Source: an uncultured bacterium
GTDB lineage: Bacteria; Patescibacteriota; Saccharimonadia; Saccharimonadales; 2-12-FULL-41-12
Assembly (NCBI GenBank): GCA_963834265.1
Contig: CAWIAU010000001.1
Location: 391,572-455,571, forward strand
DNA: 64,000 bases
Reading direction: 5' to 3'
A program made the translations under genes and the position numbers. Of the stretch, positions 3,338-59,409 are shown one piece after another. Each line of letters starts with the position of its first letter. Position 1 is the stretch's first letter. The notes under the pieces are model-generated. The model had not been told where the DNA came from. It was given only the letters and a program-made list of their open reading frames with translations, and did not search any database.

Positions 3338-4234
3338 ATGGCTACAACTGCCAAAAAACCTTCTAAGAAACCAGTAAAAAGAGCAGCCAAAAAACCTGCA
3401 GCCAAAAAAACACCAGCACAAAAAGCTACGGTCATTAATAGTGATAAAAAGCCTGTTCTCCGTAAATCGTTTAGTTTTGCGGCTTTATCTAAGCTACATC
3501 TTGTTTCTGCGATTGTCAGTGCCGTTCTGGCGGTAGCAAGTGCATTACTATTAGTGCCCGCTACTGCTCAGTTCATCATGAGCTATATGACAGATAGCGG
3601 AACGGGAGGTGCGGACAAAGTAGTACTGGCACCGGCAACCAGAGTAGTCTGGGAAGTTGAGCTGGGCTATCTGCTGGCGGGTATTTTTGCAATATCAGCT
3701 GTAGCTTCGTTATTGCTCGCAACACTTCTGAAAAAACGCTACGAAACAACTGTTACCAACAAAACTTCAGGTTTCCGATGGTTATTCGTCGGTATTACTT
3801 CAGCACTTTTGGTAGAATACGCCAGCTTAATTGCCGGAATTCAGGATATTGCGACACTCAAGCTTATAGGTGCCCTGGTGCTTGTCACGGCATTGTTCAG
3901 CTGGCTTGCCGAACGTGATAACAAAGGTGTGTCTGGCGCCAAATGGCTGGCATACTCCATTGCTCTTGTTGCAGGTACGATAGCATGGCTTCCGCTTATT
4001 ACGAGTATGGTCGGCACGCCGTTTCACGGCATGGAACGCTTCAGCTGGTATGTATACGCATTTGCCGGAGTAGTTCTGGCAGGAGTAATCTGTTTCGCAT
4101 ACAATCTGTACAGGCAAATTCGTGGCCGGGGCGCAGGTAACTATTTGTTCGCCGAGCGAAATTATGTTTTGATTGACCTTGTTATGAAAGTTGCCGCCGG
4201 CGCAGTCATCATCTACGCACTGTTAGATAAATAG
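3338..4234 (+). CDS. heliorhodopsin-like 7-TM protein with a Lys/Ala/Pro-rich N-terminal extension
   Basis: Resembles heliorhodopsin 48C12 as I recall it: FRW..., GIQDIATL (vs GIADIVAL), FSWLAERD (vs FGWLQEKY), NYLFAERNYVLIDLVMKVAAG (vs NYLRGERAYIVLSLVAKSALA, which holds the retinal Lys). Seven hydrophobic segments. Confidence 0.75.
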   Translation: MATTAKKPSKKPVKRAAKKPAAKKTPAQKATVINSDKKPVLRKSFSFAALSKLHLVSAIVSAVLAVASALLLVPATAQFIMSYMTDSGTGGADKVVLAPATRVVWEVELGYLLAGIFAISAVASLLLATLLKKRYETTVTNKTSGFRWLFVGITSALLVEYASLIAGIQDIATLKLIGALVLVTALFSWLAERDNKGVSGAKWLAYSIALVAGTIAWLPLITSMVGTPFHGMERFSWYVYAFAGVVLAGVICFAYNLYRQIRGRGAGNYLFAERNYVLIDLVMKVAAGAVIIYALLDK

Positions 4235-9895: not shown

Positions 9896-10360
9896 ATGAC
9901 AATCACAAATCATATTCTGGCCGGGTCTGTTATCGGGCTGGTAGTCAAAGAGCCTGCTTCAGCGATTGCTTTATCGCTTGCTTCGCACTTTGCTATGGAT
10001 GCCTTGCCTCACTTCGGCTATCCGGGTAACAAAGGATTCTCCGAGGCTCTGAAACACCGATTGAGTTATGTTGTCGGCTATCTGACCTTAATTTTGACAA
10101 TTACGGTAAGCCTGATACTGATAGTAAATAATCAGTGGTTTGCTCTGTTATGCGGTATCATTGCTGCCTCTCCTGATGTTATGGGTTGGTACAACTTCCT
10201 CGCCTATGAAAAGAAAGGCAAATCTGCCAAAGGTATGCTGGAATTGTTCCACATCAAATTCCACCGGCGCATTCAGAAATTTGAACGCCCATGGGGAATC
10301 TACATAGAAATTTTTACTTTTATAACTTTATTAATACTAGCTCTAAAAAATATACCCTGA
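9896..10360 (+). CDS. small integral membrane protein (possibly DUF457/YdjM-like)
   Basis: 154 aa with 3-4 TM segments. The N-terminus MTITNHILAGSVIG...HFAMDALPH faintly resembles the YdjM family. It sits between hpf and secA and is followed by repeat copy 1. Confidence 0.35.
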   Translation: MTITNHILAGSVIGLVVKEPASAIALSLASHFAMDALPHFGYPGNKGFSEALKHRLSYVVGYLTLILTITVSLILIVNNQWFALLCGIIAASPDVMGWYNFLAYEKKGKSAKGMLELFHIKFHRRIQKFERPWGIYIEIFTFITLLILALKNIP

Positions 10361-10385
10361 ATTTTAACGTCTTATTCGTAATATT

Positions 10386-10690
10386 AATCAAAATTATCTC
10401 TAGTAATTTTTCCATGGAATTGCCTCAGGCCCGAAAAGTTTTTGATGAGCGAGTGTCAAAACAACAATTAGTAATCATGGACACAGTCCGGACTTATTCC
10501 TTAAGGATTAACAAAGAAATCCGGGCCGACCAGAGGGAGTCGCCCATATATTGTTGGCTTTGACTTGTGAGATCATAAAGAGCTTTTAGTCGCCTGCGGC
10601 GTTTTTGAATACTTTTGTTGCTGCTGACAAAAGTATTGACTTGGTTCTTCGTCGGAAGAACATATTTTTGATTCTTAGCAAAGAACACTG
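10386..10690 (+). repeat. structured intergenic element, copy 1 (large apical domain as in copy 5; 3' tail as in copies 4 and 5)
   Basis: Head AATCAAAATTATCTCTAGTAATTTTTCCATGGA; hairpin TCAGG/TTTGA; long stem TCAAAACAACAAT/ATTGTTGGCTTTGA; 3' hairpins ATACTTTTGT/ACAAAAGTAT, GTTCTTC/GAAGAAC and TTCTT/AAGAA. Confidence 0.85.
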
Positions 10691-13673: not shown

Positions 13674-14957
13674 GTGAGTCATACAGTAACAGAACTTCAG
13701 TTAAAAAATGGTGCCAAAGGTCTGCTGGTGCATATTCCGGAAGCTACTGTGATGACAATCGAGATCAACTTCCGGGCCGGTGAGTATCTGGTTGATACAC
13801 CGAAGTGGGAAACACCTCACATTATGGAGCACCTGCTTCTTGGTGCAAACAAACGTATCCCCAAAGCACGAATCTTTCAGGCCGAATTCGAAAAGAACGG
13901 GGCATACTGTAATGCCAGCACCAGCGCATATGACATCACATATGAAGCAGAATGTGCAGACTTTGAGTGGGAGCGTATTCTGGATCTTATGTTGGTTGCG
14001 ATCACTGATCCGCTATTCCTGGATGAAGAATTTGATGCCGAAGTCGGTAACGTACGTGAAGAGTTGACGGGACGTGCCAACAACCATTTCCGACATCTCA
14101 GTCTTGCCCTACGTGAAGCTTTCGGTCTGTGTGCTCTGACTGACAAAGAACGCCTGGAACTGATGCAGAATGTTACGTTGACAGATGTCAAAAAACACTA
14201 CGAACGCACCCACACTGCCGATAATATGCGGTTCATTCTGGCAGGCAACTTTCCGTCAAAACGCCGTATCCATATCAAGAATGTGTTAGAAGATATCGCG
14301 CTGCCTGTAGGGACGGGTCGTCTTGATCTTCCTCAGGAAATACCGCAGAAGCTTGAAAAGGTACTGTTTATTCCCAACAAAACTGTCGATAATATTCACT
14401 TTTATCTGGATACGTTTCACACAGGTCATATCAGCGATCCGGAATTTGACGCGCTGTTGCTCGTAAACAGCATGTTAACAGAAACCTTATATTCCCGGAT
14501 TCTGGGTACTGCCCGGGAACGCGGTCTGGTATATGGTATGAGCTCCAGCGCACATACCGGCAAATTCAGTACCAACTGGTGGTTCGGCACTCAGGTGAGT
14601 GTAGGCCACGCACCGGCCTTATTCGATATTATCATAAGAGAGATAGAGAAGGTGAGGGCCGGTGACCTGTCGGCCAAAGATATCGATGATGCAAAGCAGT
14701 ACTCGTTGGGCCGGTACCAGCGCAGCGGACAGACCGTAGGCGGTATTGCCGGTATGTATGCCGGCCGGTATTTTTACGAAGACATCATCCATTACTATCA
14801 GGATGTTCCGAAGCACATCAAAGCTATTACTAAGAAACGCATTGTCGATACATCTAAAGTACTATTTGCCGATGATATATGGGGTCTGGGCGTACTCGGT
14901 GGCAACGACCGCATTGTAGCCGACATGCTCCACGCCCAAGCCTCTGTCCTGTGGTGA
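13674..14957 (+). CDS. M16 (insulinase/pitrilysin) family zinc peptidase
   Basis: Inverted zinc motif HxxEH (PHIMEHLLLG). 427 aa with a two-lobe M16 layout. GTG start. Confidence 0.75.
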   Translation: MSHTVTELQLKNGAKGLLVHIPEATVMTIEINFRAGEYLVDTPKWETPHIMEHLLLGANKRIPKARIFQAEFEKNGAYCNASTSAYDITYEAECADFEWERILDLMLVAITDPLFLDEEFDAEVGNVREELTGRANNHFRHLSLALREAFGLCALTDKERLELMQNVTLTDVKKHYERTHTADNMRFILAGNFPSKRRIHIKNVLEDIALPVGTGRLDLPQEIPQKLEKVLFIPNKTVDNIHFYLDTFHTGHISDPEFDALLLVNSMLTETLYSRILGTARERGLVYGMSSSAHTGKFSTNWWFGTQVSVGHAPALFDIIIREIEKVRAGDLSAKDIDDAKQYSLGRYQRSGQTVGGIAGMYAGRYFYEDIIHYYQDVPKHIKAITKKRIVDTSKVLFADDIWGLGVLGGNDRIVADMLHAQASVLW

Positions 14958-18494: not shown

Positions 18495-19472
18495 ATGAAA
18501 CATGATTTGATTACACTGGAGCGGATATTCAAAACCGGATTTATCAATTTCATCCGCAATGCCTCTTTATCAATCGCTGCTACAGCAGTAATGGTCGTTA
18601 CGCTCACTATAGTTTTGTTCTCGGTTATTGCCAACGCTACTTTTTCTCACACCGTGTCTGAAATTAATAAAACAATAGATATATCGGTTTATCTCAAAGA
18701 TTCAGTGACAGAAGATCAACGCAACAAGCTTATCAACGAACTGAAGGGTCTGCAGAATGTCCGGGCTGTAGAATATCTCAACAAAGAACAGGCACTCGAG
18801 AGTTACCGTGAGCAAAACAAAGATGACGTAGGCCTGTTACTGGCTATCTCCCAGGCTGATAATCCCTTGCCTGCAACAATTCGAATCAAACCAATAGATC
18901 CGGCCAGGAACGATGATATCAAAGCAGTCCTTGATAAGCCGGAGATAAGCGCTCTCCAGTCGGATGAAACATCCTATGCAGGTGAGCGCAAACAAAACAT
19001 TGATGAAATCACTAAATCCACATCATTTTTTCGCAAAGCGATTTTTGCCTCGGCTCTGGTCTTTGCTTTGATATCCATGATGATCATCTTCAATACAATT
19101 CAAATGGCCATTTTTAACCGCCGGGAAGAACTGACAATCATGAGATTACTCGGCGCGGGTACATGGTACATCCGCGGTCCCTTTATTGTCGAAACTATGC
19201 TCTATGGAGTTATCGCTGCGATCGTATCTATCAGCCTGTGTAATTTTCTGCTTATTGCGCAGGAGAGGGCTTTTGGTACCAGCAGTCTGAGCTTACTTGA
19301 TATCAATTATGCTACTGACTACTTTGCGAAGAATTTCTCAATATTTTTTGTTGCACTGCTGTTTGCCGGAATAATGATCGGCGCGTTATCATCCCTGATT
19401 GCCACCAAGCGCTACCTCAAATTCAACCAGAACTCTACCGTACGCCGCCGCATCCGCCGCAAAAAGAAATAG
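18495..19472 (+). CDS. ftsX: cell division permease-like protein FtsX
   Basis: N-terminal TM, periplasmic/extracellular loop domain, then three C-terminal TMs (FtsX layout). Adjacent to ftsE. Confidence 0.85.
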   Translation: MKHDLITLERIFKTGFINFIRNASLSIAATAVMVVTLTIVLFSVIANATFSHTVSEINKTIDISVYLKDSVTEDQRNKLINELKGLQNVRAVEYLNKEQALESYREQNKDDVGLLLAISQADNPLPATIRIKPIDPARNDDIKAVLDKPEISALQSDETSYAGERKQNIDEITKSTSFFRKAIFASALVFALISMMIIFNTIQMAIFNRREELTIMRLLGAGTWYIRGPFIVETMLYGVIAAIVSISLCNFLLIAQERAFGTSSLSLLDINYATDYFAKNFSIFFVALLFAGIMIGALSSLIATKRYLKFNQNSTVRRRIRRKKK

Positions 19473-19504
19473 CACTCTTTATTTAAAAAGACAAAAATTA
19501 TTAT

Positions 19505-19770
19505 GTAAAAATCAGTTTCAAGCCGGCCTGAAAGGCCGTCCCGACTTCCTTTTTGTGCCAACAAAAACGAAGCGAAAAAATGGCAGGCGATTACAGCTTC
19601 TTTATGATCTCATTGTCAAAAGACACAATGCTCGGCAAACTAGTCGTTTCATTATTAATTTCCATAGAATGAAACGCCGTCAAACACTGCCTCGACTCTA
19701 ATTGTGCTTTTGACACTCGCTCATCAGGAACCAGTAAAGCCTGGTTAAAATCCATGGACTAAAGTATTTA
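19505..19770 (-). repeat. structured intergenic element, copy 2 (minus orientation; unique 3' tail)
   Basis: The reverse complement reads TCCATGGATTTT...CCTGATGAGCGAGTGTCAAAAGCACAATTAGAGTCGAGG...hairpin CGTTTCATT/AATGAAACG...GAGCATTGTGTCTTTTGACAATGAGATCATAAAG, then two hairpins and TTGAAACTG. Confidence 0.8.
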
Positions 19771-19838
19771 TATATCCGACACTGAATACGAGTATAGAAA
19801 CTTTTAAGCAGTTGCTGTTATTTATTAAAGATCAAAAG

Positions 19839-19867
19839 TTGTTATATATGCGAACTTAGTATATTAT
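19839..19867 (+). promoter_or_regulatory. sigma70-like promoter TTGTTA-17-TATTAT for ORF 19894
   Basis: -35 box at 19839-19844, 17-nt spacer, -10 box at 19862-19867, 27 nt upstream of the ATG. Confidence 0.5.
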
Positions 19868-19893
19868 TATAAGTAATTAAGTGCGGGAATTAA

Positions 19894-20505
19894 ATGAGTG
19901 AAACTGATAGAAGTAGAGAATTAGAACCTGCGGCTTCAGATCAGGTTGCCGAGCTATACTGGCTGGTTCATACCGGATTAAGTTTAGTAAATCGTAATGA
20001 TACAGTTGGCGGGGATTTTAGTTATTTTACTGCTTCCAGAACCTATGCCGATGATACTTATGATGGATATATTCAAGGTGATCTCGTCAATCCTTTAGCA
20101 GAGTTCAATACAACTGGCTGCATTGCAATTATTGGAACCGGAGAGCTCGCTGAAAAAACAAGTATAACAACATTGGAGCAAACACGAGAATTACCGCATT
20201 TTATAACAGGATTTTATCTTTTCCATCAAGACACACGATTAGAAATTCGTAAGCATACTACTCTAGGGAAGCCAATTGATATAGATGTCAGAAAAGAAGC
20301 AGAGAAATTTGAGGACGGGAGCCTGGAAAATGATTTTGACTTAGGCACGGTAAGCCGACGAGAGATATCAGAGCTTATCAAGCAGGTAAAGCAAGCACTG
20401 GGTTTAGAAAAGACCGCAGAGCTTACGTTTAAAACTTTTGTTAAACAGCATGTTCTAGGATGGCTGGGAAAAGCTGGTATAGGTCATTTTAAGCGAGATA
20501 GGTAA
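19894..20505 (+). CDS. hypothetical protein (203 aa orphan) bracketed by inverted element copies 2 and 3
   Basis: ORF with its own promoter. No domain recognised. By eye more AT-rich than its neighbours (not computed). Confidence 0.55.
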   Translation: MSETDRSRELEPAASDQVAELYWLVHTGLSLVNRNDTVGGDFSYFTASRTYADDTYDGYIQGDLVNPLAEFNTTGCIAIIGTGELAEKTSITTLEQTRELPHFITGFYLFHQDTRLEIRKHTTLGKPIDIDVRKEAEKFEDGSLENDFDLGTVSRREISELIKQVKQALGLEKTAELTFKTFVKQHVLGWLGKAGIGHFKRDR

Positions 20506-20523
20506 AAGTTCTCAATTCCTGAT

Positions 20524-20757
20524 TCCGTTCAGGCCCGAAAAGCTCCTGATGAGCGAGTGTCAAAAGCACAATTAGAGCCGAGGGGTTGTTTGAGACCTGT
20601 CTATCTTAAGTAATAAAGACAGGTTGAGTTACCCGAGCATTGTGCTCTTTGACAATGAGATCCTCAAGAGCTTTTAGAGCCTGTTGCTTCTTTGCCTACT
20701 TTCTGGTCAACACAAGAAAGTAGGTTGAGGTGACGCAAAGCGTCAACTTGAAATGAA
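20524..20757 (+). repeat. structured intergenic element, copy 3 (head missing or divergent; 3' tail as in copy 6)
   Basis: TCAGG(20529-33)/CCTGA(20545-49); long stem 20560-20572 / 20639-20652; apical hairpin ACCTGTCT(20595-602)/AGACAGGT(20617-24); CCTACTTTCT(20695-704)/AGAAAGTAGG(20715-24); GACGC/GCGTC; TTGAAATG. Confidence 0.85.
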
Positions 20758-21007
20758 TTTCTTCAAATCTAACTTTTTTCTTCTCATAAGGGAATGAGCC
20801 TCAAGGCTCGTGTTATACTTTATATACAGATACATTCCAGCTGTAACAGTAGTATCTGCTTATTCGCAAAAAATAGAAGTATATGCAGGGCCAAAATAAT
20901 TAGAAATTAAATCTGTTGGAGTCAACAGATAAATTCTCCGTTTTCAGCGGGGAGAGGGGTTGATTATTTTGCTTATGCATGCTAGTATAGAAGCGTTACA
21001 TAAAAAA

Positions 21008-22144
21008 ATGAAAAACATCAAAAATAAAATGCTTTCAACACCTCTTCTGCGCGGCGCGGCAACACTGGGTATTACGGCGATATTTGGAGTCAGTGTTTTG
21101 GTGCACACCTTTGTTCAGGCTGACCAGTTTCAGGCACAGATTGATGCGATTAATCACGATAGCAGTCTCAAAAAAGACGCTCAGGGCCAGTTAGGTGCTC
21201 AGGCTGCAGGTTTATCAGACACAATTGCCAAGCTGCAGGGAGAAATTCAGGCGTTAGAGCGTCAGATTGTTGCGAACCAGCAAAAAGCTGATGATTTACG
21301 TGCTCAGATAGTGGCCGCGGAGGCCGAGCTGGCCAGGCAGAAGGCTATGCTGGGTGACATGATCAAAGCTATGTATCTGGAAGGCGATATTACTACTGTA
21401 GAAATGCTGGCTTCCAGCAAGGATCTTAGTGATTATTTTGACAAACAACAATATCAGGAAACTGTACGTAATAAAATCAAAGCTACTGTCGATAAAGTCA
21501 CACAGCTTAAACTCGACCTCAATACCCAGAAAGAAACACTGGAAAAGCTGATAGCTGATCAACAGCTTATAAGAGAACAGGTTAATGCCCAGCGCGCCGA
21601 ACAGGACCGTCTGCTTGCCCTAAATCAGAGCGAGCAAAGTGCTCTGGATCAGCAGATAAGAGCTAATAGCGGTAAGGTTGCCGAGCTGCGAGCCGCACAG
21701 GCTGCAGAGAACGCCAAGCGTTTCCGTGGTAGCGGTGTAAAGGTTGTGGCCGGCTCAAACGGCAACGATACGTATCCTGCAATATGGCGAAATTCACCTC
21801 AGGATAGCCTTGTAGACAGCTGGGGTATGTACAACCGCGAATGTGTTAGCTGGACTGCATGGAAAGTGCATTATAGTGGCCGGCACATGCCTTATTGGGG
21901 TGGAATCGGCAACGCCAACCAGTGGGATGATAATGCTCGTCGGGCTGGAATACCGGTAGATGGCAACCCGAGGGCTGGCGACATAGCTGTTGCGCACTGG
22001 GGCTACTACGGACATGTGATGTATGTCGAGTCAGTAAATCCCAACGGTACCATCAATATCAGTCAGTACAATTATGACTTCAACGGGACGTACTCTGAAG
22101 CTTATAACTTCCCGACAGCTGGTCTTGTATTCATCCACTTCTAA
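21008..22144 (+). CDS. coiled-coil + CHAP-domain peptidoglycan hydrolase (PcsB-like)
   Basis: Signal/anchor segment, then ~230 aa of heptad-like Q/A/L-rich sequence, then a C-terminal CHAP domain (NRECVSWTAW...GHVMYVESV). The ORF track starts at TTG 20960; ATG 21008 is preferred. Confidence 0.75.
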   Translation: MKNIKNKMLSTPLLRGAATLGITAIFGVSVLVHTFVQADQFQAQIDAINHDSSLKKDAQGQLGAQAAGLSDTIAKLQGEIQALERQIVANQQKADDLRAQIVAAEAELARQKAMLGDMIKAMYLEGDITTVEMLASSKDLSDYFDKQQYQETVRNKIKATVDKVTQLKLDLNTQKETLEKLIADQQLIREQVNAQRAEQDRLLALNQSEQSALDQQIRANSGKVAELRAAQAAENAKRFRGSGVKVVAGSNGNDTYPAIWRNSPQDSLVDSWGMYNRECVSWTAWKVHYSGRHMPYWGGIGNANQWDDNARRAGIPVDGNPRAGDIAVAHWGYYGHVMYVESVNPNGTINISQYNYDFNGTYSEAYNFPTAGLVFIHF

Positions 22145-22273
22145 CAAATAACCTTTGTCAGGTGATCGCACAAATCAAAGAAGTTTAAAATATTGCTTTT
22201 GGTTAGCGTTTATAACTGTTTTTACGGTAGAATATAGAATATATAGAAAATTAACAGAGAGGGGTGGCAACAC

Positions 22274-23512
22274 TTGAATTACATGGCAAATTATCCGGCT
22301 CCCACGGAGCCGGCACCGAAGCGGGGTATCCCGGGGGCTTTAAAGTTAGCAGCAGTCGGGGCAGTATCAATAGTTATGTTCGGCATAGGCGTTCTGACAG
22401 GGCAGGGCAGGATCAGCTTTAGCTCTGACAAACCCGCTAACCAATCAGTACAGAAACAACCGGCCGGCAAATTTGATTACTCGTCTATTGAGGGATTATC
22501 AGCTCAGCTACGCCAGAATTTTGACGGCGAACTGGATAATGCCAAACTGGAAGAGGGACTAAAAGAGGGACTGGTCAAAGCCGCCGGTGACCCATACACC
22601 GAGTACTTCAATGCCGAGGGGAGTAAAGAGCTTCAGGAGCAGTTAAGCGGCTCGTTCGAAGGGATAGGCGCTGAACTTGGTAAACAGGAAGATGCAATTG
22701 TGATCATTTCGCCGATTGCAGGCTTCCCCGCAGAGAAAGCCGGGATGAAACCGCGTGATATTATCTACGAAATAAACGGCAAGACAGCGGCTGACATATC
22801 AATCAGTGAGGCGGTCAAACAGATCCGCGGGCCCAAAGGCACCAAAGTTAAACTGACAGTTATACGTGATGGTCAGAAGCTGGACTTCGAAATCACCCGT
22901 GAACAGATCAGCATCCCGAGTGTTACTAGTGAGATTGTAACCGGGAACATCGGTATTATCAAAATCTCACGTTTCGGTGAAGATACGGTGGACTTAGCCT
23001 CCAAAGCCGCTACTGATTTCAAAGCAAAAGGTGTAACCGGCGTCATATTGGATCTTCGCGGGAACCCCGGTGGTTATCTGGAAGGATCGGTCAAAATCAG
23101 CAGCCTGTGGCTGGACAAAGGCAAACTGGTCGTTGAAGAAAAACGTGGCGACAAGGTAATAAAAGACCACAAAGCTACCGGTAATTCGATATTATTCGGT
23201 ATACCGACAGTAGTGTTAATCGACGAGGGTAGCGCCAGTGCCAGCGAAATCGTAGCCGGTGCACTCAAGGATCACAAAGCCGCGACAATCATGGGAACCA
23301 AAAGTTATGGCAAGGGCAGTGTTCAGCAGGTCCTGCCGCTGAATGACGGAGGTACGCTTAAGGTCACAGTAGCCCGCTGGTTCACGCCGGCCGGCCGTAA
23401 CATCGATAAAGAGGGTATAGAACCTGATCAGAAAACTGATCGGAGTACAGAAGACATCAAGGCCAACAAAGATCCACAGAAAGATGCGGCACTTTCCAAG
23501 CTCAAGAAGTAA
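22274..23512 (+). CDS. S41 carboxyl-terminal processing protease with PDZ domain
   Basis: GIGAELG...PIAGFPAEKAGMKPRDIIYEINGK (PDZ); DLRGNPGGYL and GSASASEIVAGALKD (S41 Ser/Lys region). Confidence 0.85.
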   Translation: MNYMANYPAPTEPAPKRGIPGALKLAAVGAVSIVMFGIGVLTGQGRISFSSDKPANQSVQKQPAGKFDYSSIEGLSAQLRQNFDGELDNAKLEEGLKEGLVKAAGDPYTEYFNAEGSKELQEQLSGSFEGIGAELGKQEDAIVIISPIAGFPAEKAGMKPRDIIYEINGKTAADISISEAVKQIRGPKGTKVKLTVIRDGQKLDFEITREQISIPSVTSEIVTGNIGIIKISRFGEDTVDLASKAATDFKAKGVTGVILDLRGNPGGYLEGSVKISSLWLDKGKLVVEEKRGDKVIKDHKATGNSILFGIPTVVLIDEGSASASEIVAGALKDHKAATIMGTKSYGKGSVQQVLPLNDGGTLKVTVARWFTPAGRNIDKEGIEPDQKTDRSTEDIKANKDPQKDAALSKLKK

Positions 23513-23591
23513 AACTCTCAAACCGGATAAAATTCATGGACTGACGCATATAGTGGAAGAGAAACCGTATCAGATGAACCGGGAGGTGTGC

Positions 23592-23620
23592 TTGACAAAA
23601 GTGAGGAAGTAGTGTAGTAT
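23592..23620 (+). promoter_or_regulatory. consensus promoter TTGACA-17-TAGTAT for ORF 23660
   Basis: -35 box at 23592-23597, 17-nt spacer, -10 box at 23615-23620. Confidence 0.55.
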
Positions 23621-23659
23621 GTAAGTATCGTTTTCAAAAACAAAAAACAAGGAAAAATT

Positions 23660-23899
23660 ATGAATGCCCCAAACGAAATAACAACTCAAACCTCAGCTGT
23701 AGCCACTCACGATTTAGGTAATACCGCTTTAACCGGTTCCACACCAATACCCAGAGGAGGTTGGCAGGATCCGATAGACGCAAATCCTGAAGCAGAACAT
23801 CAGGCACAACTGGCATCACCAGTTGCGCAAAATCCGGCCAGAGCAAATGAGCAAATGGCACAGGCAGCCCCGCCCGAAATTCCCGGCTGGCACGAATAG
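23660..23899 (+). CDS. small hypothetical protein (79 aa, Pro/Ala/Gln-rich)
   Basis: Follows a consensus promoter and an AAGGA RBS. Repeat copy 4 starts 2 nt after its TAG stop. Confidence 0.4.
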   Translation: MNAPNEITTQTSAVATHDLGNTALTGSTPIPRGGWQDPIDANPEAEHQAQLASPVAQNPARANEQMAQAAPPEIPGWHE

Positions 23900-23900
23900 A

Positions 23901-24190
23901 AATCAAAATTATCGAAGTAATTTTTCCATGGATTTTCTCAGGCCTGAAAAGCTCCTTGACGTGGCGAGTGTTAAAAGTACAATTAGAGCCAAGGCAGTGT
24001 TTGAAGATATTTCATTCTAAAAATCAATAAAAGAAATATCAAGTTTGCCGGGCATTGTTCTCTTTGACAGTGAGATCATAAAAAAGATTTTCGTGTCCTG
24101 CGGCGTTTTTGGATACTTTTGTTGCTGCAGGCAAAAGTATCGACTTGGTTCTTCGTCGGAAGAACATTGCTTTGGTTCTTTTAAGAACAC
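23901..24190 (+). repeat. structured intergenic element, copy 4 (chimeric: apical domain as in copies 2/3/6, 3' tail as in copies 1/5)
   Basis: AATCAAAATTATCGAAGTAATTTTTCCATGGATTTTCTCAGGCCTGAAAAG...; long stem TTAAAAGTACAAT/ATTGTTCTCTTTGA; apical hairpin GATATTTC/GAAATATC; 3' hairpins ATACTTTTGT/GCAAAAGTAT and GTTCTTC/GAAGAAC. Confidence 0.85.
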
Positions 24191-24238
24191 TCCCATTGTG
24201 TGAGATAATAAGAGGCAAGTTATAGCCATATATTATTA

Positions 24239-25393
24239 ATGAGTAAATTCAAGTCCAAAAAGAAAGTTCAGCCGGCGCGTTTCGATATGCATCGTACAAT
24301 TGCATATCCGGCCCGTGAGTATTCAAAGCAACCTGTCGAGCAGATTGAAGAACCGGCAAAAAAGCGGTTTTTTACCTGGAAAAAGGGAATATTACTTTTA
24401 ATTCTGTTTATACTAACGCCTTTGCTGATAATTGGTATCTGGAATGCCCGTAATTTTTCGCAGGCCAGCAAAAAGCTTTTTGGCAGCGGCAATATTCTGC
24501 AGCTTTTGAACTCCACTCCGCTCAAAAGCACCGAACAGGGGCGGGTAAATATGCTGCTAATCGGCTATTCTGCCGATGATCCCGGCCACGCCGGAGGCAC
24601 GCTGACAGACTCAATCATGGTTCTGAGTCTCGATAAAAACACGAATACCGGCTATATGCTCAGTATTCCGCGTGATTTATATGTTGATATCCCTGGCTAT
24701 GGTTACGCTAAAATCAATGAAGCCTTTCAGAATGGCAAAATGGATGACTTCAGTGAAGCCGGCTATTCCTCCGGCGGCAGCGGTTTACTGGAAAAAATTA
24801 TAGATGAAAACTTCGGTATAAAAGTCCATTATTATACTATTATCAACTATGGTGCCGTGAAGGATATGGTCAGTGCGCTGAATGGTATTACTATTGATAT
24901 AAAGAGCGATGATGTGCGAGGGTTATATGATCCCAACTTTCTGCCCCGCGAAGGCGGACCGCTCAAGCTGTCGAACGGACCGCAGCAAATTGATTCGGAG
25001 ACTGCTCTCAAACTGACACGTGCCCGTGGGGCGGCAGGCAATTCCTACGGCTTTGCGCGCTCTGACTACAACCGTGCCCAGCATCAGCGTCAGGTACTTG
25101 CGGCCATCAAAGACAAAATCAGCTGGGAGCTCATTCTGGATCCCCGCCGGAATGATAAATTATTTGACGCCGCGGCCAATAATATCAAAACTAATTTACA
25201 GGCCGGTGAAGCTTTGCCATTCTACAGACTATTTAATGGTGTTCCGGCTGCCGGTCTGGAGCCGATTGGCCTCAACGACATAGGCGGAACAGACCTGCTA
25301 CGCAGCTATCAGACACCGAATGGCCAGTCAGCTCTGATCCCTGCTGCCGGAATCGATAACTACCTTCAGATTCGTAAGGCCTTAAACAGGTAA
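24239..25393 (+). CDS. LytR-CpsA-Psr (LCP) family cell-wall polymer ligase
   Basis: N-terminal TM followed by the LCP core (VNMLLIGYSADD...TDSIMVLSLD...SIPRDLYVDIPGYGYAKINEAF). Confidence 0.85.
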   Translation: MSKFKSKKKVQPARFDMHRTIAYPAREYSKQPVEQIEEPAKKRFFTWKKGILLLILFILTPLLIIGIWNARNFSQASKKLFGSGNILQLLNSTPLKSTEQGRVNMLLIGYSADDPGHAGGTLTDSIMVLSLDKNTNTGYMLSIPRDLYVDIPGYGYAKINEAFQNGKMDDFSEAGYSSGGSGLLEKIIDENFGIKVHYYTIINYGAVKDMVSALNGITIDIKSDDVRGLYDPNFLPREGGPLKLSNGPQQIDSETALKLTRARGAAGNSYGFARSDYNRAQHQRQVLAAIKDKISWELILDPRRNDKLFDAAANNIKTNLQAGEALPFYRLFNGVPAAGLEPIGLNDIGGTDLLRSYQTPNGQSALIPAAGIDNYLQIRKALNR

Positions 25394-35191: not shown

Positions 35192-37405
35192 ATGGCAGGC
35201 ACACCAGAAATAACAGAACCTGTTAGGGTTGATCAGGAAAGCCTGACTCATAATGTCTATCCCGGACCAAGTGGTGCCGCAGACAATGACTCTCAAAAGG
35301 AATTTTCACAATATGTTGTTGACAGAATGTATGGCGCAGATGATAAGGTTGCGCAAGATTATCGACCAGGCGCTGAAGTGCCAGGTCAAACCCACTGGAG
35401 GCGCGAAGGATGGGTACTGGGTGTGACCCCGGGAAAAGCTCTTATAGCAACTGCGGTCGGACTGGTCGTACTAAATGTTGCGGTGAACGCTGGTAGTATG
35501 GCCGGAAAAATAAAGGAAATGTTTGGTGATCTTAAGCATCAGATAAGTCCTGAGAAGCGAACAGTATTAGGGGAAATGACTGTAACCCAGTCGCGCACCC
35601 ATACGTTGCGCTATCCACTTGATTTGACAGGTAGGGAACATCGCAGCGGAACGGCACAAGAGGATAGATTATCTGCAAGAAAATTAGTCCTGTCACTGAA
35701 AGCTCTCAAATCAGGAAGCAAGGTTGAAGAAATAACAATCGTAGGTAACACTTCTGATGAATGGGCAGCAAATGGTCCTAAATCTGTCGGTAGAAATGAT
35801 ACCGAAAATAACACCTTGGGACTAAGAAGAGCTGTTATATTCGGCAAAAGCGTAGATAGAGAATCACAAAAGCTAAAAGTCAGTTTACCTGATGCAAGAA
35901 CCAGTTCTGAGGAGCATATTCTGGACAATTCAGAGCTTTCCGAGGTGCTTTTATCAGTGCAGAAAAGTAAGTACGGAAGCGTACTGGAAGCTATATCTGC
36001 CTACAATGCCGGGGATAAAAGTATGTCACCGACACTAGCAACTATTATTAAAGAAACTATTGCTCAGAATCGGGTCAGTACGGCAATTGTTAAAGTGCGC
36101 GAGAACTCTATAGTTCCTGCAAAAGTTATCGTTGAGTCTCCGCATGAGGAATCTGTTGATCGTCCTGATGATAAACATCCCATCAAGAAGATACCATTTC
36201 TCATTCCTTTCTTCCCTAGGATGCGACGCGAACATAAGGATCCGTTCCGCAAACCGCCAATAATTCGCGATGAACCAATCGATAAAGTCTGGGTTGAGCT
36301 GTACGAAGAGGCGCTCAAGACGGGCGGTAAGCTTGTAGATGATGCGTGGTCGCTAAGTAGAAAGTATCAATATTTATACCGCGAAAACCGAATTACTCAG
36401 GTACTCCAATTCGATTATGTTGACGACAGCGGCAAAAAACAGAAAACGAATGTTCTTTTTACTGACCGGGATGAACTGGGAGAAGATGTGATTGATGCGA
36501 TTTCCGGACTGTTGCTCGACATAAGCATGATGCAAAATGGAAAGGTTGCAGAAAAACTCGATACCATCGTGGTTGTGCCGACCGAACAGACAGGGCCGCA
36601 GCGGCCGGATAAAATTGGCTTGGGTATCGACGATCAGATGCATCAAAACGTCTTGGGAGTTGCAATACCTGTCTTGGGATTGGTAGAGCTCCATATGCCA
36701 GATACGCCAACTAAAGGTGATATAGAACGATTTAACGGAACGCGCTGGGTTATTGCACATGAAGTTGGGGGGCACTTTACTGACGTAAATAAGCAGAGTC
36801 GGATCATCGATAAAACAAAAAGCAACCGTCCCGGACGCATCTTCACGGCTCGCAATCCATGGGTTAATGTCGGTGCGGACAGCTATAACTCAACTTCAAG
36901 GCGGGGAGTTGTTAAGATTCAACAATTTACTATTCCGAACCCTGATGGTTCGACAACTGAATTTATTGTGAATGCTGGCGACCAGGAGTTGGTTGATGCA
37001 CCAAAAGCCCGGTTGCGCGGTGAAGCACCAACAAATTATGGTGACACCTCAGCGGCAGAGATTCATGCGGAAACGGCAGCTGGTGTAATTACCGGTATAC
37101 CAATCCCTGCTTCAGAATCCGGAAATGTTCCTGAGATACTGGGCGATAAAGCCGGCTATAAGGTTGATGCTGGTTTGCAGCATCGTTTTATAAGCCGGAT
37201 CGGTGCATTAAGAGGTAAAGAAGACCTTGAATGGGATCCAAATCGTTTTGAAAAGAGACAAAAAACTGTAAAAGTTTCCGTTCTGCGCGGAGCAGTTGAA
37301 TTAAACGACGATAAGGATCAGAATAGAATTAGCGAAAATGCGAAGAATAGTCCCTATCAAGATGATGAAAAACGTCTCAAAATTCTAGCCCGGGTTCGAA
37401 GATAA
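35192..37405 (+). CDS. membrane-anchored protein with an OmpA-C-like segment and a HExxH metalloprotease-like motif
   Basis: TM ALIATAVGLVVLNVAVNAG; ITIVGNTSDEW...NNTLGLRRAVIFG resembles the OmpA/MotB peptidoglycan-binding pattern; WVIAHEVGGHFTD is a HExxH motif. Confidence 0.5.
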   Translation: MAGTPEITEPVRVDQESLTHNVYPGPSGAADNDSQKEFSQYVVDRMYGADDKVAQDYRPGAEVPGQTHWRREGWVLGVTPGKALIATAVGLVVLNVAVNAGSMAGKIKEMFGDLKHQISPEKRTVLGEMTVTQSRTHTLRYPLDLTGREHRSGTAQEDRLSARKLVLSLKALKSGSKVEEITIVGNTSDEWAANGPKSVGRNDTENNTLGLRRAVIFGKSVDRESQKLKVSLPDARTSSEEHILDNSELSEVLLSVQKSKYGSVLEAISAYNAGDKSMSPTLATIIKETIAQNRVSTAIVKVRENSIVPAKVIVESPHEESVDRPDDKHPIKKIPFLIPFFPRMRREHKDPFRKPPIIRDEPIDKVWVELYEEALKTGGKLVDDAWSLSRKYQYLYRENRITQVLQFDYVDDSGKKQKTNVLFTDRDELGEDVIDAISGLLLDISMMQNGKVAEKLDTIVVVPTEQTGPQRPDKIGLGIDDQMHQNVLGVAIPVLGLVELHMPDTPTKGDIERFNGTRWVIAHEVGGHFTDVNKQSRIIDKTKSNRPGRIFTARNPWVNVGADSYNSTSRRGVVKIQQFTIPNPDGSTTEFIVNAGDQELVDAPKARLRGEAPTNYGDTSAAEIHAETAAGVITGIPIPASESGNVPEILGDKAGYKVDAGLQHRFISRIGALRGKEDLEWDPNRFEKRQKTVKVSVLRGAVELNDDKDQNRISENAKNSPYQDDEKRLKILARVRR

Positions 37406-37419
37406 AATTTCATCAATAA

Positions 37420-37716
37420 ACCAAAATTATCTTTAGTAATTTTTCCATAGAGTTTATCAGGCCTGAAAAGTTCCTGATGGGTGAGTGTCAAAACGACAAT
37501 TAATGATCGTGGACTTAGTCCGGACTTTAATCCTTCAAGATTAATGAAAAGTTCGGGCCGACTGAAAGGAGTCGTCCATGATATTGTTATTTTGACGATG
37601 AGACCATAAAGAGCTTTTAAAGCCTGCGGCTTTTTTGGATACTTTTGTTGCTGCTGACAAAAGTAGCGATTTGCTTCTTTATCAAAAGAAGACATATTTG
37701 GATCTTTCTAAAGAAC
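37420..37716 (+). repeat. structured intergenic element, copy 5 (closest to copy 1)
   Basis: ACCAAAATTATCTTTAGTAATTTTTCCATAGA; TCAGG/CCTGA; long stem TCAAAACGACAAT/ATTGTTATTTTGA; inner stem ATCGTGGAC/GTCCATGAT (one G.U pair); 3' hairpins ATACTTTTGT/ACAAAAGTA, CTTCTTT/AAAGAAG and TCTTT/AAAGA. Confidence 0.85.
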
Positions 37717-37735
37717 AGATATACTAAATAGTCTT

Positions 37736-57012: not shown

Positions 57013-58542
57013 ATGGATCAGGCTTTAGCTTTGGAAATACTATTGAGCGGCGAGAATGTGCTGCTGACAGGTCCGGCCGGCTCTGGCAAAACTTATGTCC
57101 TGCGTGACTTTATTACGCAAGCAAAAAGAAACGGTAAGCACGTGGCTGTAACTGCCACAACCGGACTGGCAGCCACTCATCTGAACGGCTCGACCATACA
57201 TTCCTGGAGTGGCATCGGCATCCATGATCAATTATCGCCTGATTTTCATGAGAACCTGCATAAAGGCCGGCGGGACACCATTATCAAAGCTGATGTGCTG
57301 ATTATCGACGAAATATCAATGCTACATCATTACCGGCTGGATATGGTAGATCAGATTACCCGCAAGGTCAGGGGAAGTGATAAGCCTTTCGGTGGCCTGC
57401 AGGTTGTTCTGTGTGGTGACTTTTTCCAGTTGCCACCGGTTACACGTGGTGATCAGGAAAATGGGAAATTTGTAGTCAGTTCTGCCGTATGGGAAGAGTT
57501 TGATCCGGTAATTTGTTATCTGAACGAACAGCACCGTCAAAACGATGATATATTTCTGGAAATACTGAGTGCCCTGAGGGCTGATGACGTACGCCGGCAT
57601 CATGCAGAAGCCTTGCTGTCTCGCCAGGACAAGGAGGTAGGGGAAGCTACGGAACTGCACACAACCAATATAGATGTTGATACGATCAACGCCGCCAGGC
57701 TGGCCCTGTTGGACAGCGAAGAGCATACATATAGCATGACCACCACCGGCAAAGAGAGCTATGTAGAAGGCTTAATCCGTTCTTGTCTGGCAGTCCCGGA
57801 GCTGACACTGAAAAAAGGCGCACTGGTAATGTGCATCAAAAACAATCCGGAAAAAAAATATGTCAACGGGTCACTTGGAATTGTGACCGGCTTTGAAGAA
57901 GCAACAAATTATCCTAAAGTAGAGCTAAGAAGTGGCCGGAAGCTTGTTATAACTCCTGAGTCATGGGAACTTCGGGATGGTGATAAAAAGCGGGCATCAC
58001 TAAGTCAAATCCCACTCAGGCTGGCGTGGGCAATTACTGTGCACAAGAGTCAGGGAATGACTCTTGACGCCGCAACGGTTGATCTGCGAAGGGCATTTGT
58101 TGAGGGAATGGGCTATGTGGCACTCAGCCGTGTTCGAAGCCTCGACACACTGAGACTGAATGGTATCAATCAGATGGCTCTGCGGGTTAGTCCGCAGGCG
58201 CTGGAAATAGATCAGCAATTACTTAAGAAATCGATACTTGATAGCAAAAAATTCGAACATTTGCGCAAAAAAGCCAAAAAACGAGCCAAAGAAAAGATAG
58301 ATGAGAGACCAGCTACAGGCTGGAATGACAAAGTAGCCAAAATGCGCGAAACCTATCCCAATGCTTACCGGCCATGGAGTGAAACAGACGACTCAGTTCT
58401 TGTAAAGCTTTTTTCCGATGGAAAGTCGGTAACCATCAGGGAAATGACCGTAAAGTTCGGCCGTCACCCCGGGTCAATTCGTGCCCGCCTTAAAAAGCAC
58501 TTCGGAGAAGATGCAGTCTCCGACCTGACAAACCATAAATAA
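57013..58542 (+). CDS. PIF1/RecD-like superfamily 1 DNA helicase with a C-terminal HTH-like extension
   Basis: LLTGPAGSGKTYVL (Walker A), LIIDEISML, EQHRQ, and AITVHKSQGMTLD. ~110-aa basic C-terminal tail. Confidence 0.8.
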   Translation: MDQALALEILLSGENVLLTGPAGSGKTYVLRDFITQAKRNGKHVAVTATTGLAATHLNGSTIHSWSGIGIHDQLSPDFHENLHKGRRDTIIKADVLIIDEISMLHHYRLDMVDQITRKVRGSDKPFGGLQVVLCGDFFQLPPVTRGDQENGKFVVSSAVWEEFDPVICYLNEQHRQNDDIFLEILSALRADDVRRHHAEALLSRQDKEVGEATELHTTNIDVDTINAARLALLDSEEHTYSMTTTGKESYVEGLIRSCLAVPELTLKKGALVMCIKNNPEKKYVNGSLGIVTGFEEATNYPKVELRSGRKLVITPESWELRDGDKKRASLSQIPLRLAWAITVHKSQGMTLDAATVDLRRAFVEGMGYVALSRVRSLDTLRLNGINQMALRVSPQALEIDQQLLKKSILDSKKFEHLRKKAKKRAKEKIDERPATGWNDKVAKMRETYPNAYRPWSETDDSVLVKLFSDGKSVTIREMTVKFGRHPGSIRARLKKHFGEDAVSDLTNHK

Positions 58543-58611: not shown

Positions 58612-59085
58612 ATGACTAGAGCAGAACGCACCTCCATTGTCGAAGATTCTCCAGATCTATCACGTATTGCCGTATTACCCGTTACTCCACTGACGGGGGC
58701 AAACTTGGAGCTAACTCAAGCTTTTTTTAAAGCAGCGATAGGAGCAGGTGCGAAAGCTATATTATTGATAGGCTATGCTACCGGCACTACTCCCGGTGCA
58801 ATTAACCCATTAGTAAAAGATACCGTAGAATCGGGCATACCAATATTTGTACTGTCGAACAATAAGGGAGATGATAAAGGCCCTCAAAGAATAACGTATG
58901 GTTCTCAGCAAGATGCAGTCGATGCCGGAATAACGCCGCTTAGAGATGTAAATATAAACCATATCGAAGAAGTTATGGCCACTATAGATGGAATGATTGC
59001 CGACGATGTAGCCGGAGCAGAATTAGCTCAGGCAGTAGTCGATGTATACGGAACTTCGGGACGGGACCTACCCTCACCTTCATAG
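58612..59085 (+). CDS. stand-alone asparaginase/glutaminase C-terminal-domain-like protein
   Basis: GAGAKAILLIGYATGTTPGAINPLVKDTVESGIPIFVLSNN...ITYGSQQDAVDAGITPLRD follows the asparaginase C-domain pattern. The catalytic N-domain is absent. Confidence 0.4.
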   Translation: MTRAERTSIVEDSPDLSRIAVLPVTPLTGANLELTQAFFKAAIGAGAKAILLIGYATGTTPGAINPLVKDTVESGIPIFVLSNNKGDDKGPQRITYGSQQDAVDAGITPLRDVNINHIEEVMATIDGMIADDVAGAELAQAVVDVYGTSGRDLPSPS

Positions 59086-59102
59086 AGATCTGTTTCTAAA
59101 AA

Positions 59103-59370
59103 ATTCAAAATTATCGAAGTAATTTCTCCATGGATTTTTTCTGGCCTTAAAAGTTCCTGATGAGCGAATGGCAAAAGTACAATTAAAGTCGAGGTATGTT
59201 TGAGACTTATTTTCATCTAAAATAATTAAGATAAGTTGAGTTACCCGAGCATTGTGCTCTTTGACAATGAGATTATAAAGAACTTTTAGAGCCTGTTGCT
59301 TCTTTGTCTGCTTTCTGGTCAACACAAGAAAGTAGGTTGAGGTGACTCGAAGAGTCAGCTTGAAATGGAT
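59103..59370 (+). repeat. structured intergenic element, copy 6 (closest to copy 3)
   Basis: ATTCAAAATTATCGAAGTAATTTCTCCATGGATTTT; TCTGG/CCTGA; long stem GCAAAAGTACAAT/ATTGTGCTCTTTGA; apical hairpin ACTTAT/ATAAGT; CTGCTTTCT/AGAAAGTAGG; GACTC/GAGTC; TTGAAATG. Confidence 0.85.
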
Positions 59371-59409
59371 TAATATCGAGTGTTTTTGGAAGAATGTTAT
59401 GATTAAGCT

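Follow-up and report, generated by a model that had tools for sequence, protein, structure and literature searches.

Why would a gene-dense genome keep the same structured sequence at six of its intergenic sites within 64,000 nucleotides (nt)? The question is raised by positions 20,524-20,757 of a 64-kb stretch of an uncultured Saccharimonadales genome (assembly GCA_963834265.1, contig CAWIAU010000001.1, positions 391,572-455,571; this whole stretch is hereafter the window), where a first-pass annotation had reported one of six copies of a structured intergenic element of no family that it could name. We find an element of ~270 bases (about 250-300 nt) that, by dissection of an alignment, consists in 5' to 3' order of a variable hairpin, (T)CCATGG, a rod of ~160 nt, an H-type pseudoknot and one to three 3' hairpins. 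Its fold is supported strongly across 40 copies and, judged from sequence patterns, the element is most probably selected as a folded single strand of RNA. In the following, c1-c6 denote copies 1-6 of the window and L-numbers denote related loci or contigs elsewhere.

Copies in the window and in related genomes

An nhmmer profile made from the six copies of the first-pass annotation and run over the whole window returned exactly these six as full matches, with E 4e-72 to 4e-65, and no other match. The matches span 10386-10669(+), 19514-19780(-), 20491-20754(+), 23900-24173(+), 37419-37699(+) and 59102-59367(+), and a 20-nt degenerate core pattern likewise matched six times in the window against 0 expected. 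Column-wise identity among the six copies is 64-71%. They sit in the window's six largest intergenic gaps, which measure 324-575 nt where the median gap is 60 nt, and the element accounts for 1757 of about 6692 intergenic bases (~26%) in a window that is about 89% coding, in agreement with the ~1.7 kb of gene-dense DNA originally attributed to the family.

The working set of 40 copies (alignment A4) combines the six window copies with 34 from Saccharimonadales genomes and metagenomes. Scanning of a genome collection with a pattern that was too degenerate (~140 chance matches expected) gave true copies at five of 119 loci, located in two Saccharibacteria/Saccharimonadales metagenome-assembled genomes (MAGs) and a MAG labelled Parcubacteria 0813_bin17. 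A tighter two-block pattern applied to metagenomes gave 24 contigs, every one of which carries true copies. Loci L123-L146 stem from polar soil, mat and lake samples. The three pattern matches among the viral contigs scanned were all due to chance, an annotated phage collection contained zero matches to the element, and a plasmid collection yielded a single 41-nt match at chance level (E 6e-3) and nothing else.

Fold and covariation of the head and rod

Paired cells amount to 87.0% over the 40 copies, against 75.0 +/- 0.5% in column shuffles and 35-45% when partners were slid by 1-3 columns. By pair counting in alignment A4, 32 of the 50 pairs changed on both sides, double-changed cells number 261 (87 +/- 10 when shuffled), and the covariation score is 0.351, compared with 0.152 for shuffles (reached in 0/500) and 0.06-0.10 for slid partners. 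The stems are thus kept by compensatory changes, as had been claimed from six copies, and the covariation did not vanish as copies were added but holds with 40. The purine-rich strand, long stem, return strand, apical hairpin, 3' hairpins, G.T positions and mixed modules of the original description are likewise all present.

The head described earlier was recovered in altered form, namely as a hairpin of varying sequence followed by the conserved (T)CCATGG. The hairpin reads AAAATTAtc...gTAATTTT in the window, and GAGAAAAAC/GTTTTTCTC, ATACGTAC/GTACGTAT and others in non-window copies. The rod is closed by P1, CAGGC/GCCTG, with double changes at four of five pairs (e.g. CAGGC/GCCTG <-> TGGGC/GCCCA <-> GGCCC/GGGCC). 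Most metagenome copies have a GGA/GGA internal loop within P2, a helix that in the window copies is paired throughout. P2 is followed by P3 (UGAUGA-gc/gr-UCAUAA), by an internal loop (5'-GAR / 5'-AUGA) and P4a (UGUCAAA/UUUGACA), both invariant, and then, past a small loop that varies, by P4b (CACAAU/AUUGUG). Past P4b lies a 5-nt bulge, UUAnn, which has grown to a 14-nt hairpin in two copies, and beyond it GC/GC plus tandem G.A/A.G pairs, P5, whose 4 bp vary greatly in sequence, a conserved loop UGUYUGA / UGAGUU and finally the variable apical hairpin P6 with an A-rich loop. P6 was not alignable by MAFFT and was tested by partner swapping instead, in which its own stems averaged 6.0 bp against 2.7 +/- 0.2 when swapped, with 33 distinct stem sequences. 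The flagged copy, c3, illustrates this architecture. It is truncated at its 5' side, where head hairpin and CCATGG are missing and an upstream open reading frame (ORF) ends at 20505.

20491..20770 (+), copy 3, the copy flagged by the first-pass annotation (nhmmer E 4.9e-72)
20530..20683 (+), rod, P1 to P1' (dissection, pair counts, single-sequence fold z = -4.6)
20530-34/20679-83 (+), P1
20538-45/20668-75 (+), P2
20547-54/20659-66 (+), P3
20555-57/20655-58 (+), invariant loop, GAG / ATGA
20558-64/20648-54 (+), P4a, TGTCAAA / TTTGACA
20567-72/20639-44 (+), P4b, followed by the bulge at 20573-77
20578-85/20631-38 (+), G.A tandem plus P5
20587-93/20625-30 (+), conserved loop, TGTTTGA / TGAGTT
20594-20624 (+), P6 hairpin

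One stem of the first description did not stand. Pairing as the local hairpin TCAGG/CCTGA could occur in 87% of cells, which equals shuffles, and shows zero compensatory changes; since it does not covary and P1 does, the long-range CAGGC/GCCTG is the supported pairing. Wobble G.U pairs (UG:8, GU:15) let this local hairpin, CAGG/CCUG (A4 columns 48-51 with 65-68; c3 20530-33 with 20545-48), form even in copies whose P1 has covaried; it has no statistical support but might represent an intermediate of co-transcriptional folding or a switch. We rejected the idea that the conserved CUGAUGA marks a hammerhead or a box C/D RNA, as the segment is part of a covarying Watson-Crick helix (UGAUGA/UCAUAA <-> UGAUUG/CAGUCA) and Rfam is negative.

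A pseudoknot and a possible triplex in the 3' domain

Past P1', the 3' domain opens with 4-5 nt that base-pair to the P7 loop. A U-rich linker comes next, then P7, with a pyrimidine-rich 5' strand and a 3' strand that is 73% purine, and lastly one to three more hairpins. The first-pass annotation had recognized the 3' hairpins, which are present, but overlooked that the loop of the first one pairs with the 4-5 nt past the rod to form a pseudoknot. This pairing (S1) occurs in at least 10 combinations, among them CGGC/GCUG, UCGG/CCGA, UCAC/GUGA, UCAG/CUGA and GCCA/UGGC as well as GUCA/UGAC, GUUG/CAAC, UCUG/CAGA and CAGG/CCUG, and own partners form 4.82 bp against 4.00 +/- 0.14 for swapped ones (0/2000). 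A covariance model of the 3' domain built with P7 only, the pseudoknot being left out, found 54 sense-strand modules in element-bearing loci and zero in five element-free Saccharibacteria loci. In the resulting Infernal alignment A6, all five pseudoknot pairs show double changes (e.g. CG:19/UA:19; CG:17/GU:16/UA:6/AU:3), and the covariation score is 0.534 against 0.195 for shuffles (0/500) and <=0.13 for slid partners. Because the pseudoknot lay outside the covariance model, this alignment is unbiased toward it, and the H-type topology is backed by covariation.

20682..20724 (+), 3' domain of copy 3 with H-type pseudoknot (partner-swap test, covariation, parallel-register test)
20682-86 (+), pseudoknot S1, TGTTG, with CAACA at 20709-13
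20687-94 (+), U/C-rich linker, CTTCTTTG
20695-20704 with 20715-20724 (+), P7
20725..20765 (+), tail, with hairpin 3 GACGC-AAA-GCGTC at 20732-20744, then the conserved CTTGAAATGAATTTCTTCA

The linker between S1 and P7 is nearly pure U (166 T, 31 G, 18 C, 3 A) and mirrors the P7 purine strand in parallel register (UUUUUU/AAAA(G), UUCUUU/AAGAAA, UUUGG/AAAGG). Parallel U:A/C:G runs are partner-specific (own 4.42, swapped 3.75 +/- 0.13, 0/2000); antiparallel complementarity between linker and P7 is not (own 5.39, swapped 5.33 +/- 0.11, 678/2000), and for want of this specificity antiparallel pairing of the linker with the P7 3' strand was discarded as an alternative hairpin or switch. The parallel register suggests the geometry of a triplex with loop 1 in the major groove of stem 2, in which the U-rich loop would probably line the groove of the A-U-rich helix through U.A-U and C+.G-C triples. 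In some variants G faces G, which does not make a canonical triple of the pyrimidine motif.

Hairpin 3 of c1 and c4 follows the pattern of an intrinsic terminator, a G+C-rich hairpin then a U tract. The conserved U tract of the 3' domain lies before P7, not after it, and a T-rich tract after hairpin 3 is found in only nine of 45 modules. Hairpin 3 is therefore not a general intrinsic terminator, and the idea that it terminates bidirectionally as a rule was rejected on the same count.

Selected strand and coding potential

Among mismatched cells, G.U outnumbers A.C by 72:24 in the listed orientation (binomial p about 1e-6, uncorrected for relatedness), and the listed strand folds more stably in 28 of 40 cores (p 0.001) and 30 of 40 3' domains (p 0.0002). 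The G.U excess together with the better folding of the listed strand points to selection on one folded strand, RNA or single-stranded DNA (ssDNA), as the first-pass annotation had argued from its G.T positions. RNA is the likelier of the two in view of the size of the element, its tandem G.A pairs, invariant loops and pseudoknot. A promoter inside the element was considered and dismissed, TTGACA (in P4a) and CACAAT (in P4b) being wrongly spaced and an upstream promoter not conserved.

No open frame is conserved across the 40 copies, in which the median open stretch is <=32 codons, with minima of 0-19. There is practically no chance that the ATG of CCATGG begins a small protein-coding gene: an ORF does start there in some copies (about 56 codons in c2, to 10563 in c1), but none stays open across the 40 copies, many of which are interrupted by an in-frame TGA within their best-conserved block (GATGAGTGAATG); indel lengths are not divisible by three, and substitutions track helices, not codons. 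This candidate was consequently refuted. The listed ORFs 10291-10563, 19399-19701, 37357-37695 and 59080-59622 overlap copies and are probably spurious, and gene callers set a 126-aa 'gene' across the element in L147 (3236-3616). ORF 23658-23906 (82 aa, minus strand), just upstream of c4, may or may not be real.

Module exchange and a second core family

The dissection of the other five window copies is as follows.

10386..10690 (+), copy 1 (profile match, dissection)
10390-10418 (+), copy 1 head hairpin AAAATTATC...GTAATTTT plus CCATGG
10426-10596 (+), copy 1 rod, with an apex of family-2 type, CGACCAGAGGGAGT, at 10527-10540
10597-10636 (+), copy 1 pseudoknot/P7
10644-10661 plus ATATTTTTG (+), copy 1 hairpin 3, terminator-like
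19495..19784 (-), copy 2, the sole minus-strand copy of the window; rod 19584-19743, pseudoknot/P7 19545-19583
23900..24195 (+), copy 4; rod 23940-24100, pseudoknot/P7 24101-24140, hairpin 3 24148-24165
37419..37720 (+), copy 5; rod 37458-37626, pseudoknot/P7 37627-37666
59102..59385 (+), copy 6; rod 59141-59295, pseudoknot/P7 59296-59335

Copy 4 joins a type-A apex to a type-1 tail, copy 5 has an apex of family-2 type (CGACTGAAAGGAGT at 37559-37572), and the tail of copy 6 is of type 2, like that of copy 3. Elsewhere, whole modules have been replaced by those of another subfamily at orthologous sites (L049/L141 and L123/L144). Through 3' modules lying outside any core of the family described so far (family 1), we found a second core family, family 2, in L005, L035, L145, L128, L147, L126 and L125; it is absent from the window. 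Family 2 has a family-1-like 5' hairpin and pseudoknot, a long closing helix CAGCnnUGAUAAAAC/GUUUUAUCAnnGCUG, differing arms and an apex motif (GGACCGACCnGAGGGAGUC; GGACCGACCnGAGGGAGTC) that is the 'type-B apex' of c1 and c5. Its cores lie about 220 nt upstream of the following 3' modules.

L005 4090-4135 (+) and 6702-6747 (-), family-2 3' modules
L035 3159-3204 (+), family-2 3' module
L145 1549-1597 (+), family-2 3' module
L128 1458-1503 (+), family-2 3' module
L147 3397-3443 (-) and 4322-4367 (+), family-2 3' modules
L126 351-396 (-), family-2 3' module
L125 7366-7412 (-), family-2 3' module

There are also 'mini' versions, in which only the 5' hairpin, the pseudoknot and the bottom of the closing helix are left, and on the minus strand of L125 (8038-7600) a single core is followed by three tandem pseudoknot/hairpin units, the second of which has an 8-bp pseudoknot, CUGCGGUG/CACUGCAG (CTGCGGTG/CACTGCAG). 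Taken together, the second core family, the mini versions and the tandem units indicate that the base and the 3' module are constant and the rod interior is exchangeable. The recombination of modules noticed within the window is thereby borne out and extended to a second core family that has base, apex motif and 3' domain in common with the first.

Gene neighbourhood

All 40 copies are intergenic and adjoin gene ends; genes flanking the window copies include secA, ftsE/X, a CHAP-domain gene, an S41 peptidase, LytR, aminoacyl-tRNA synthetases and CTP synthase. The head typically begins 2-56 nt past the stop codon of a co-oriented ORF. At the other side, either a convergent gene has its stop next to the tail (-33 to +16 nt), or a co-oriented gene starts 18-55 nt past the tail's end. 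Head-side ORFs are mutually unrelated, mostly without Pfam domains (11 of 14) and in some cases toxin-antitoxin-like, whereas 10 of 11 convergent ORFs on the tail side are conserved genes, including those for FtsX, RNase III, DprA, HPF, KhpA and, twice, LPG synthase (Fisher p about 0.001 for the contrast).

Copy 5 begins 14 nt past the stop of a 737-aa gene if the nhmmer start at 37419 is taken, or 40 nt past it from the trimmed start, and ends about 16-26 nt before the next gene, depending on the tail end chosen. The 737-aa protein (35192-37405(+)) has no Pfam domain and falls into about nine clusters only (57-30% identity), apparently from Saccharibacteria-type contigs. A cassette of this ORF and the element was rejected, as homologs of the ORF (57-35% identity) in four other genomes are followed by gaps of 15-156 nt without an element. 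The tail of c2 adjoins the ftsX stop codon (19472) and its head points toward ORF 19894-20505(+), which lies between the inverted c2 and c3 and encodes 203 aa; this is the ORF that ends upstream of c3, and it is a strict ORFan, the sole match among 5.8 billion proteins. At this ftsX-CHAP site the window thus has a copy(-), an ORF and a copy(+). In L148 and L149 (FtsX 71-72% identical), ftsX is followed after 74-76 nt by the CHAP gene, and their 12-13 kb are without the element; L147 (FtsX 78%) has at its ftsX site an inverted element pair around an unrelated 120-aa ORF, with arms that differ from those of the window.

Copies at orthologous sites were found beside rnc (L049/L141) and beside the LPG-synthase gene (L123/L144), where the genes are only 61-66% identical. 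In the close strains L125 and L142, the element is identical at 269 of 270 positions, against 96.0% over 3.2 kb of flank (p about 2e-4). L127 and L140 have identical 3' domains (97/97) and about 20 changes in the core. The L125a and L142 copies are immediately preceded, on their upstream side, by a microsatellite of the heptamer (TCTTCTG)n (L125 about 3420-3480, L142 about 13690-13734). Near prfA-ftsEX, the element-free relatives carry a DDE_Tnp_1 transposase gene and YafQ-type toxin genes (L149 2851-3672; L148 338-610; L149 4799-5071). The window also contains a heliorhodopsin gene at 3338-4234(+) (PF18761, E 3.5e-31), in what is a small Saccharibacteria genome, and a Pif1/RecD-like helicase gene at 57013-58542(+), two genes upstream of c6.

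Interpretation and alternatives

The reading that we favour, with a likelihood falling just short of an even chance, is that of a new modular, dispersed, Saccharimonadales-specific element that is selected as folded RNA, transcribed with its neighbours and active on transcript ends. We infer transcription in cis, as a 3' untranslated region or intercistronic segment, from the position of the copies, most of which begin 2-56 nt past a co-oriented stop and many of which end 18-55 nt before the next start. The triplex pseudoknot with its flanking hairpins would then be a stable 3' structure that may block exoribonucleases or aid termination, insulation or processing, and the conserved loops of the rod could be a platform for recognition by a protein or RNase. 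Spread and homogenization of copies would probably have proceeded by inter-copy recombination, not by classical cut-and-paste transposition. A bolder version, possible and in our view doubtful, would make the element an undescribed class of large modular structured RNA in the Candidate Phyla Radiation (CPR)/Patescibacteria (Saccharimonadales), in which the closing helix and triplex pseudoknot, sometimes in tandem, serve as an autonomous module (e.g. an exoribonuclease-resistant 3' cap or protein-binding platform), tens of copies per ~0.7-Mb genome are kept by host-level selection, and recombination in a naturally competent lineage exchanges the rod interiors.

Several observations weigh against a role as cis-transcribed RNA. 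Copies occur in either orientation relative to their neighbours, no promoter motif is conserved upstream of them, and hairpin 3 is terminator-like in only nine of 45 modules; these are among the reasons why we stay below an even chance. In the head-to-head pairs L046a/b, L124b/c and c2...c3, one partner has no co-oriented upstream gene. The opposite strand of single copies also folds well (z = -5.95 for c3), G.T wobble and pseudoknots are possible in ssDNA too, the shuffle statistics throughout take no account of relatedness among copies, and the triplex is based on about two independent sequence states.

The strand asymmetry is compatible with ssDNA as well, so that the element could be a non-autonomous mobile DNA or recombination site working as folded ssDNA in the manner of integron attC sites, REP/RAYT or IS200/IS605 ends, moved by an enzyme encoded elsewhere, perhaps during natural transformation, its RNA structure being incidental. 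Such a site would fit the dispersed, multicopy occurrence, the presence in the window and L147 with absence from L148/L149, the unrelated ORF swapped in between the inverted copies of L147, the scarcity of Pfam domains in head-side ORFs (11/14 without) next to conserved tail-side genes (10/11), and the internally deleted mini versions and module swaps. We nevertheless consider it unlikely: there is no target-site duplication, rod-flanking repeat or inverted repeat at the ends, and no transposase or integrase in the 64 kb; a length of about 270 nt with pseudoknot, loops and tandem G.A pairs is far beyond known ssDNA sites; the homologs of the 737-aa ORF without an element in four genomes argue against an ORF-element cassette; and within-genome copies are old (64-71% identity), with one orthologous copy more conserved than the flanking coding DNA. 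That the copies form a family of small RNAs of about 250-300 nt, each transcribed on its own and acting in trans (e.g. protein-sequestering or scaffold RNAs), with a promoter in or before the head and a terminator in the tail, is quite unlikely, in that no upstream promoter motif is conserved, many copies lie 2-56 nt past a stop codon and so have no room for a promoter outside coding sequence, and six copies per 64 kb extrapolate to tens in 720 kb, which would be unprecedented for a trans-acting RNA. The exchangeable and deletable rod interior and the rarity of a T tract (9/45 hairpin-3 units) speak against it too, despite a discrete conserved architecture with invariant loops suited to protein binding, some terminator-like tails, and an orientation independent of neighbouring genes, by which head-to-head pairs could use a common divergent promoter region.

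That the copies are merely elaborate terminators or insulators, gene-end hairpin clusters with no further RNA function, is very unlikely. This would leave the 160-nt rod, the invariant loops and the covarying pseudoknot unexplained and would cost the expression of co-oriented genes that start 18-55 nt downstream of several copies; moreover, the U tract precedes P7, and a T-rich tail is found in only nine of 45 hairpin-3 units. What speaks for terminators is the siting at gene 3' ends, the terminator-like score of the type-1 hairpin 3 plus ATATTTTTG, and the surroundings of hairpin 3, an A-rich P7 strand on its upstream side and a U-rich tract on its downstream side, which would suit bidirectional termination in type-1 copies. 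Finally, the size and pseudoknot of the element resemble omega-RNAs, so that an orphan scaffold or guide RNA of an RNA-guided system (TnpB/IscB omega-RNA, IS110 bridge RNA or TIGR unit) comes to mind, and CPR bacteria do carry TIGR-Tas systems (PMC12045711). This origin is highly improbable, given that no TnpB, IscB, IS110 or Nop-domain gene was detected in the window or beside the copies examined, the variable parts are paired and not guide-like, HEARO and other Rfam models are unmatched, and the copies are dispersed.

Significance

Saccharibacteria and other CPR genomes are ultrasmall and gene-dense, yet one element family accounts for about a quarter of the intergenic DNA of the window. The covariation of the element is on par with that of established RNA families. 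If it acts as RNA, no earlier class of abundant structured non-coding RNA would have been described for this phylum, and the element would be an unusually complex case among dispersed bacterial repeats; if it is an ssDNA recombination site, it would bear on gene gain and swapping in the genomes of naturally competent epibionts. In practice, repeats of the element disrupt metagenomic assemblies and yield spurious ORF calls.

Comparison with known families and systems

At gathering thresholds, Rfam 15 gave zero matches in the whole window, and at E<=10 only three chance-level matches over 19400-24300 (17-22 bits, against thresholds of 40-50); in six related loci it matched tRNAs only. Families that failed to match include hammerhead, twister, pistol, hatchet, HEARO, 6S, OLE, GOLLD, ROOL, raiA and group I/II introns, so that at gathering and permissive thresholds alike there is still no Rfam family by which to name the element. 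Literature searches turned up no description of such an element for Saccharibacteria and CPR bacteria, in which, according to the TM7x transcriptome paper, no small RNAs have been validated (bioRxiv 10.1101/2022.03.25.485537).

Direct repeats in a copy's own flanks score 6.97, against 6.69 +/- 1.04 for flanks of different copies, and target-site duplications hinted at by a 9-nt repeat (c1) and a 12-nt repeat (L143) are not general. Direct repeats around the rod score 3.94 against 3.83 +/- 0.12, and an insertion of the rod into the 3' module was rejected because flanking direct repeats are found in L046a only. Terminal inverted repeats are lacking, as the 5' hairpin plus CCATGG is not complementary to the 3' hairpin(s) plus TTGGTTCTT or GAAAYTGG, and the only inverted repeat of the element is internal (the rod arms). 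A match to Rfam or to a miniature inverted-repeat transposable element derived from a DDE transposase (e.g. Correia, RUP, Nezha) that would have made the element a known one did not emerge from the Rfam, target-site duplication and terminal inverted repeat analyses. No gene for a transposase, integrase, reverse transcriptase or RNA-guided nuclease, and none for TnpB, IscB, IS110 or a Nop-domain protein, was found in 30 window ORFs or in 20 ORFs next to copies elsewhere, a scan that for an autonomous partner covers 64 kb of the ~720-kb genome.

Ends of the IS200/IS605 family, palindrome-associated transposable elements (PATEs) and TnpB/IscB omega-RNAs have no target-site duplication or terminal inverted repeats, hairpins at both ends, and 150-300-nt pseudoknotted RNA. 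The element resembles them in the lack of both kinds of repeat, in its end hairpins and in strand-specific folding; it differs in that TnpA, TnpB and IscB genes were not found and that its 5' and 3' hairpins are mutually unrelated and variable in sequence. No guide-like unpaired variable segment exists, the variable parts being paired stems. The TIGR units of CPR bacteria form 36-nt tandem arrays (PMC12045711), and a TIGR array was rejected since copies of the element are dispersed.

Integron attC sites are simple hairpins of 57-141 nt with R''/L''-L'/R' boxes, arranged in co-oriented arrays beside intI. Similarities to the element are a fold kept above sequence, strand-specific selection and many copies just past the stops of diverse, often orphan or toxin-antitoxin-like ORFs. 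The element is distinguished by its length of about 270 nt with a pseudoknot, by single copies in both orientations among housekeeping genes and by the lack of an integrase in 64 kb; size and architecture thus set it apart from attC, with R-box motifs not searched formally. Triple-helix H-type pseudoknots (telomerase RNA, SAM-II, SAM-V, preQ1-II) and ENE/MALAT1 triple helices have the same succession of S1, U-rich loop 1, S2 pyrimidine strand, S1' and S2 purine strand. The module of the element, with its triplex predicted from sequence patterns only, has no family relationship to them (Rfam negative) and is multicopy, sometimes tandem and attached to a rod.

The closest kind are the structured interspersed bacterial repeats (BOX, ERIC, Correia, REP). 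BOX elements of S. pneumoniae consist of A, B and C modules with a varying number of B units, and such repeats are thought to act on co-transcribed mRNA through stability, processing or termination. BOX and RUP (S. pneumoniae), ERIC/IRU (enterobacteria), Correia/NEMIS (Neisseria) and REP/BIME resemble the element in being multicopy, intergenic, located at gene ends in either orientation, modular and built of long imperfect hairpins. REP/BIME units are clustered imperfect palindromes of 20-40 nt that have a conserved 5' tetranucleotide and are accompanied by a RAYT (Y1 transposase) gene. Such an assignment does not fit a multidomain unit of about 270 nt, and the ORFs scanned gave no match to Y1_Tnp. 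Compared with these repeats, the element has neither terminal inverted repeats nor target-site duplication, and it is larger and more elaborate, with its ~160-nt rod, invariant loops, tandem G.A pairs and covarying pseudoknot; its within-genome copies are old (64-71%), and one orthologous copy is more constrained than the neighbouring genes.

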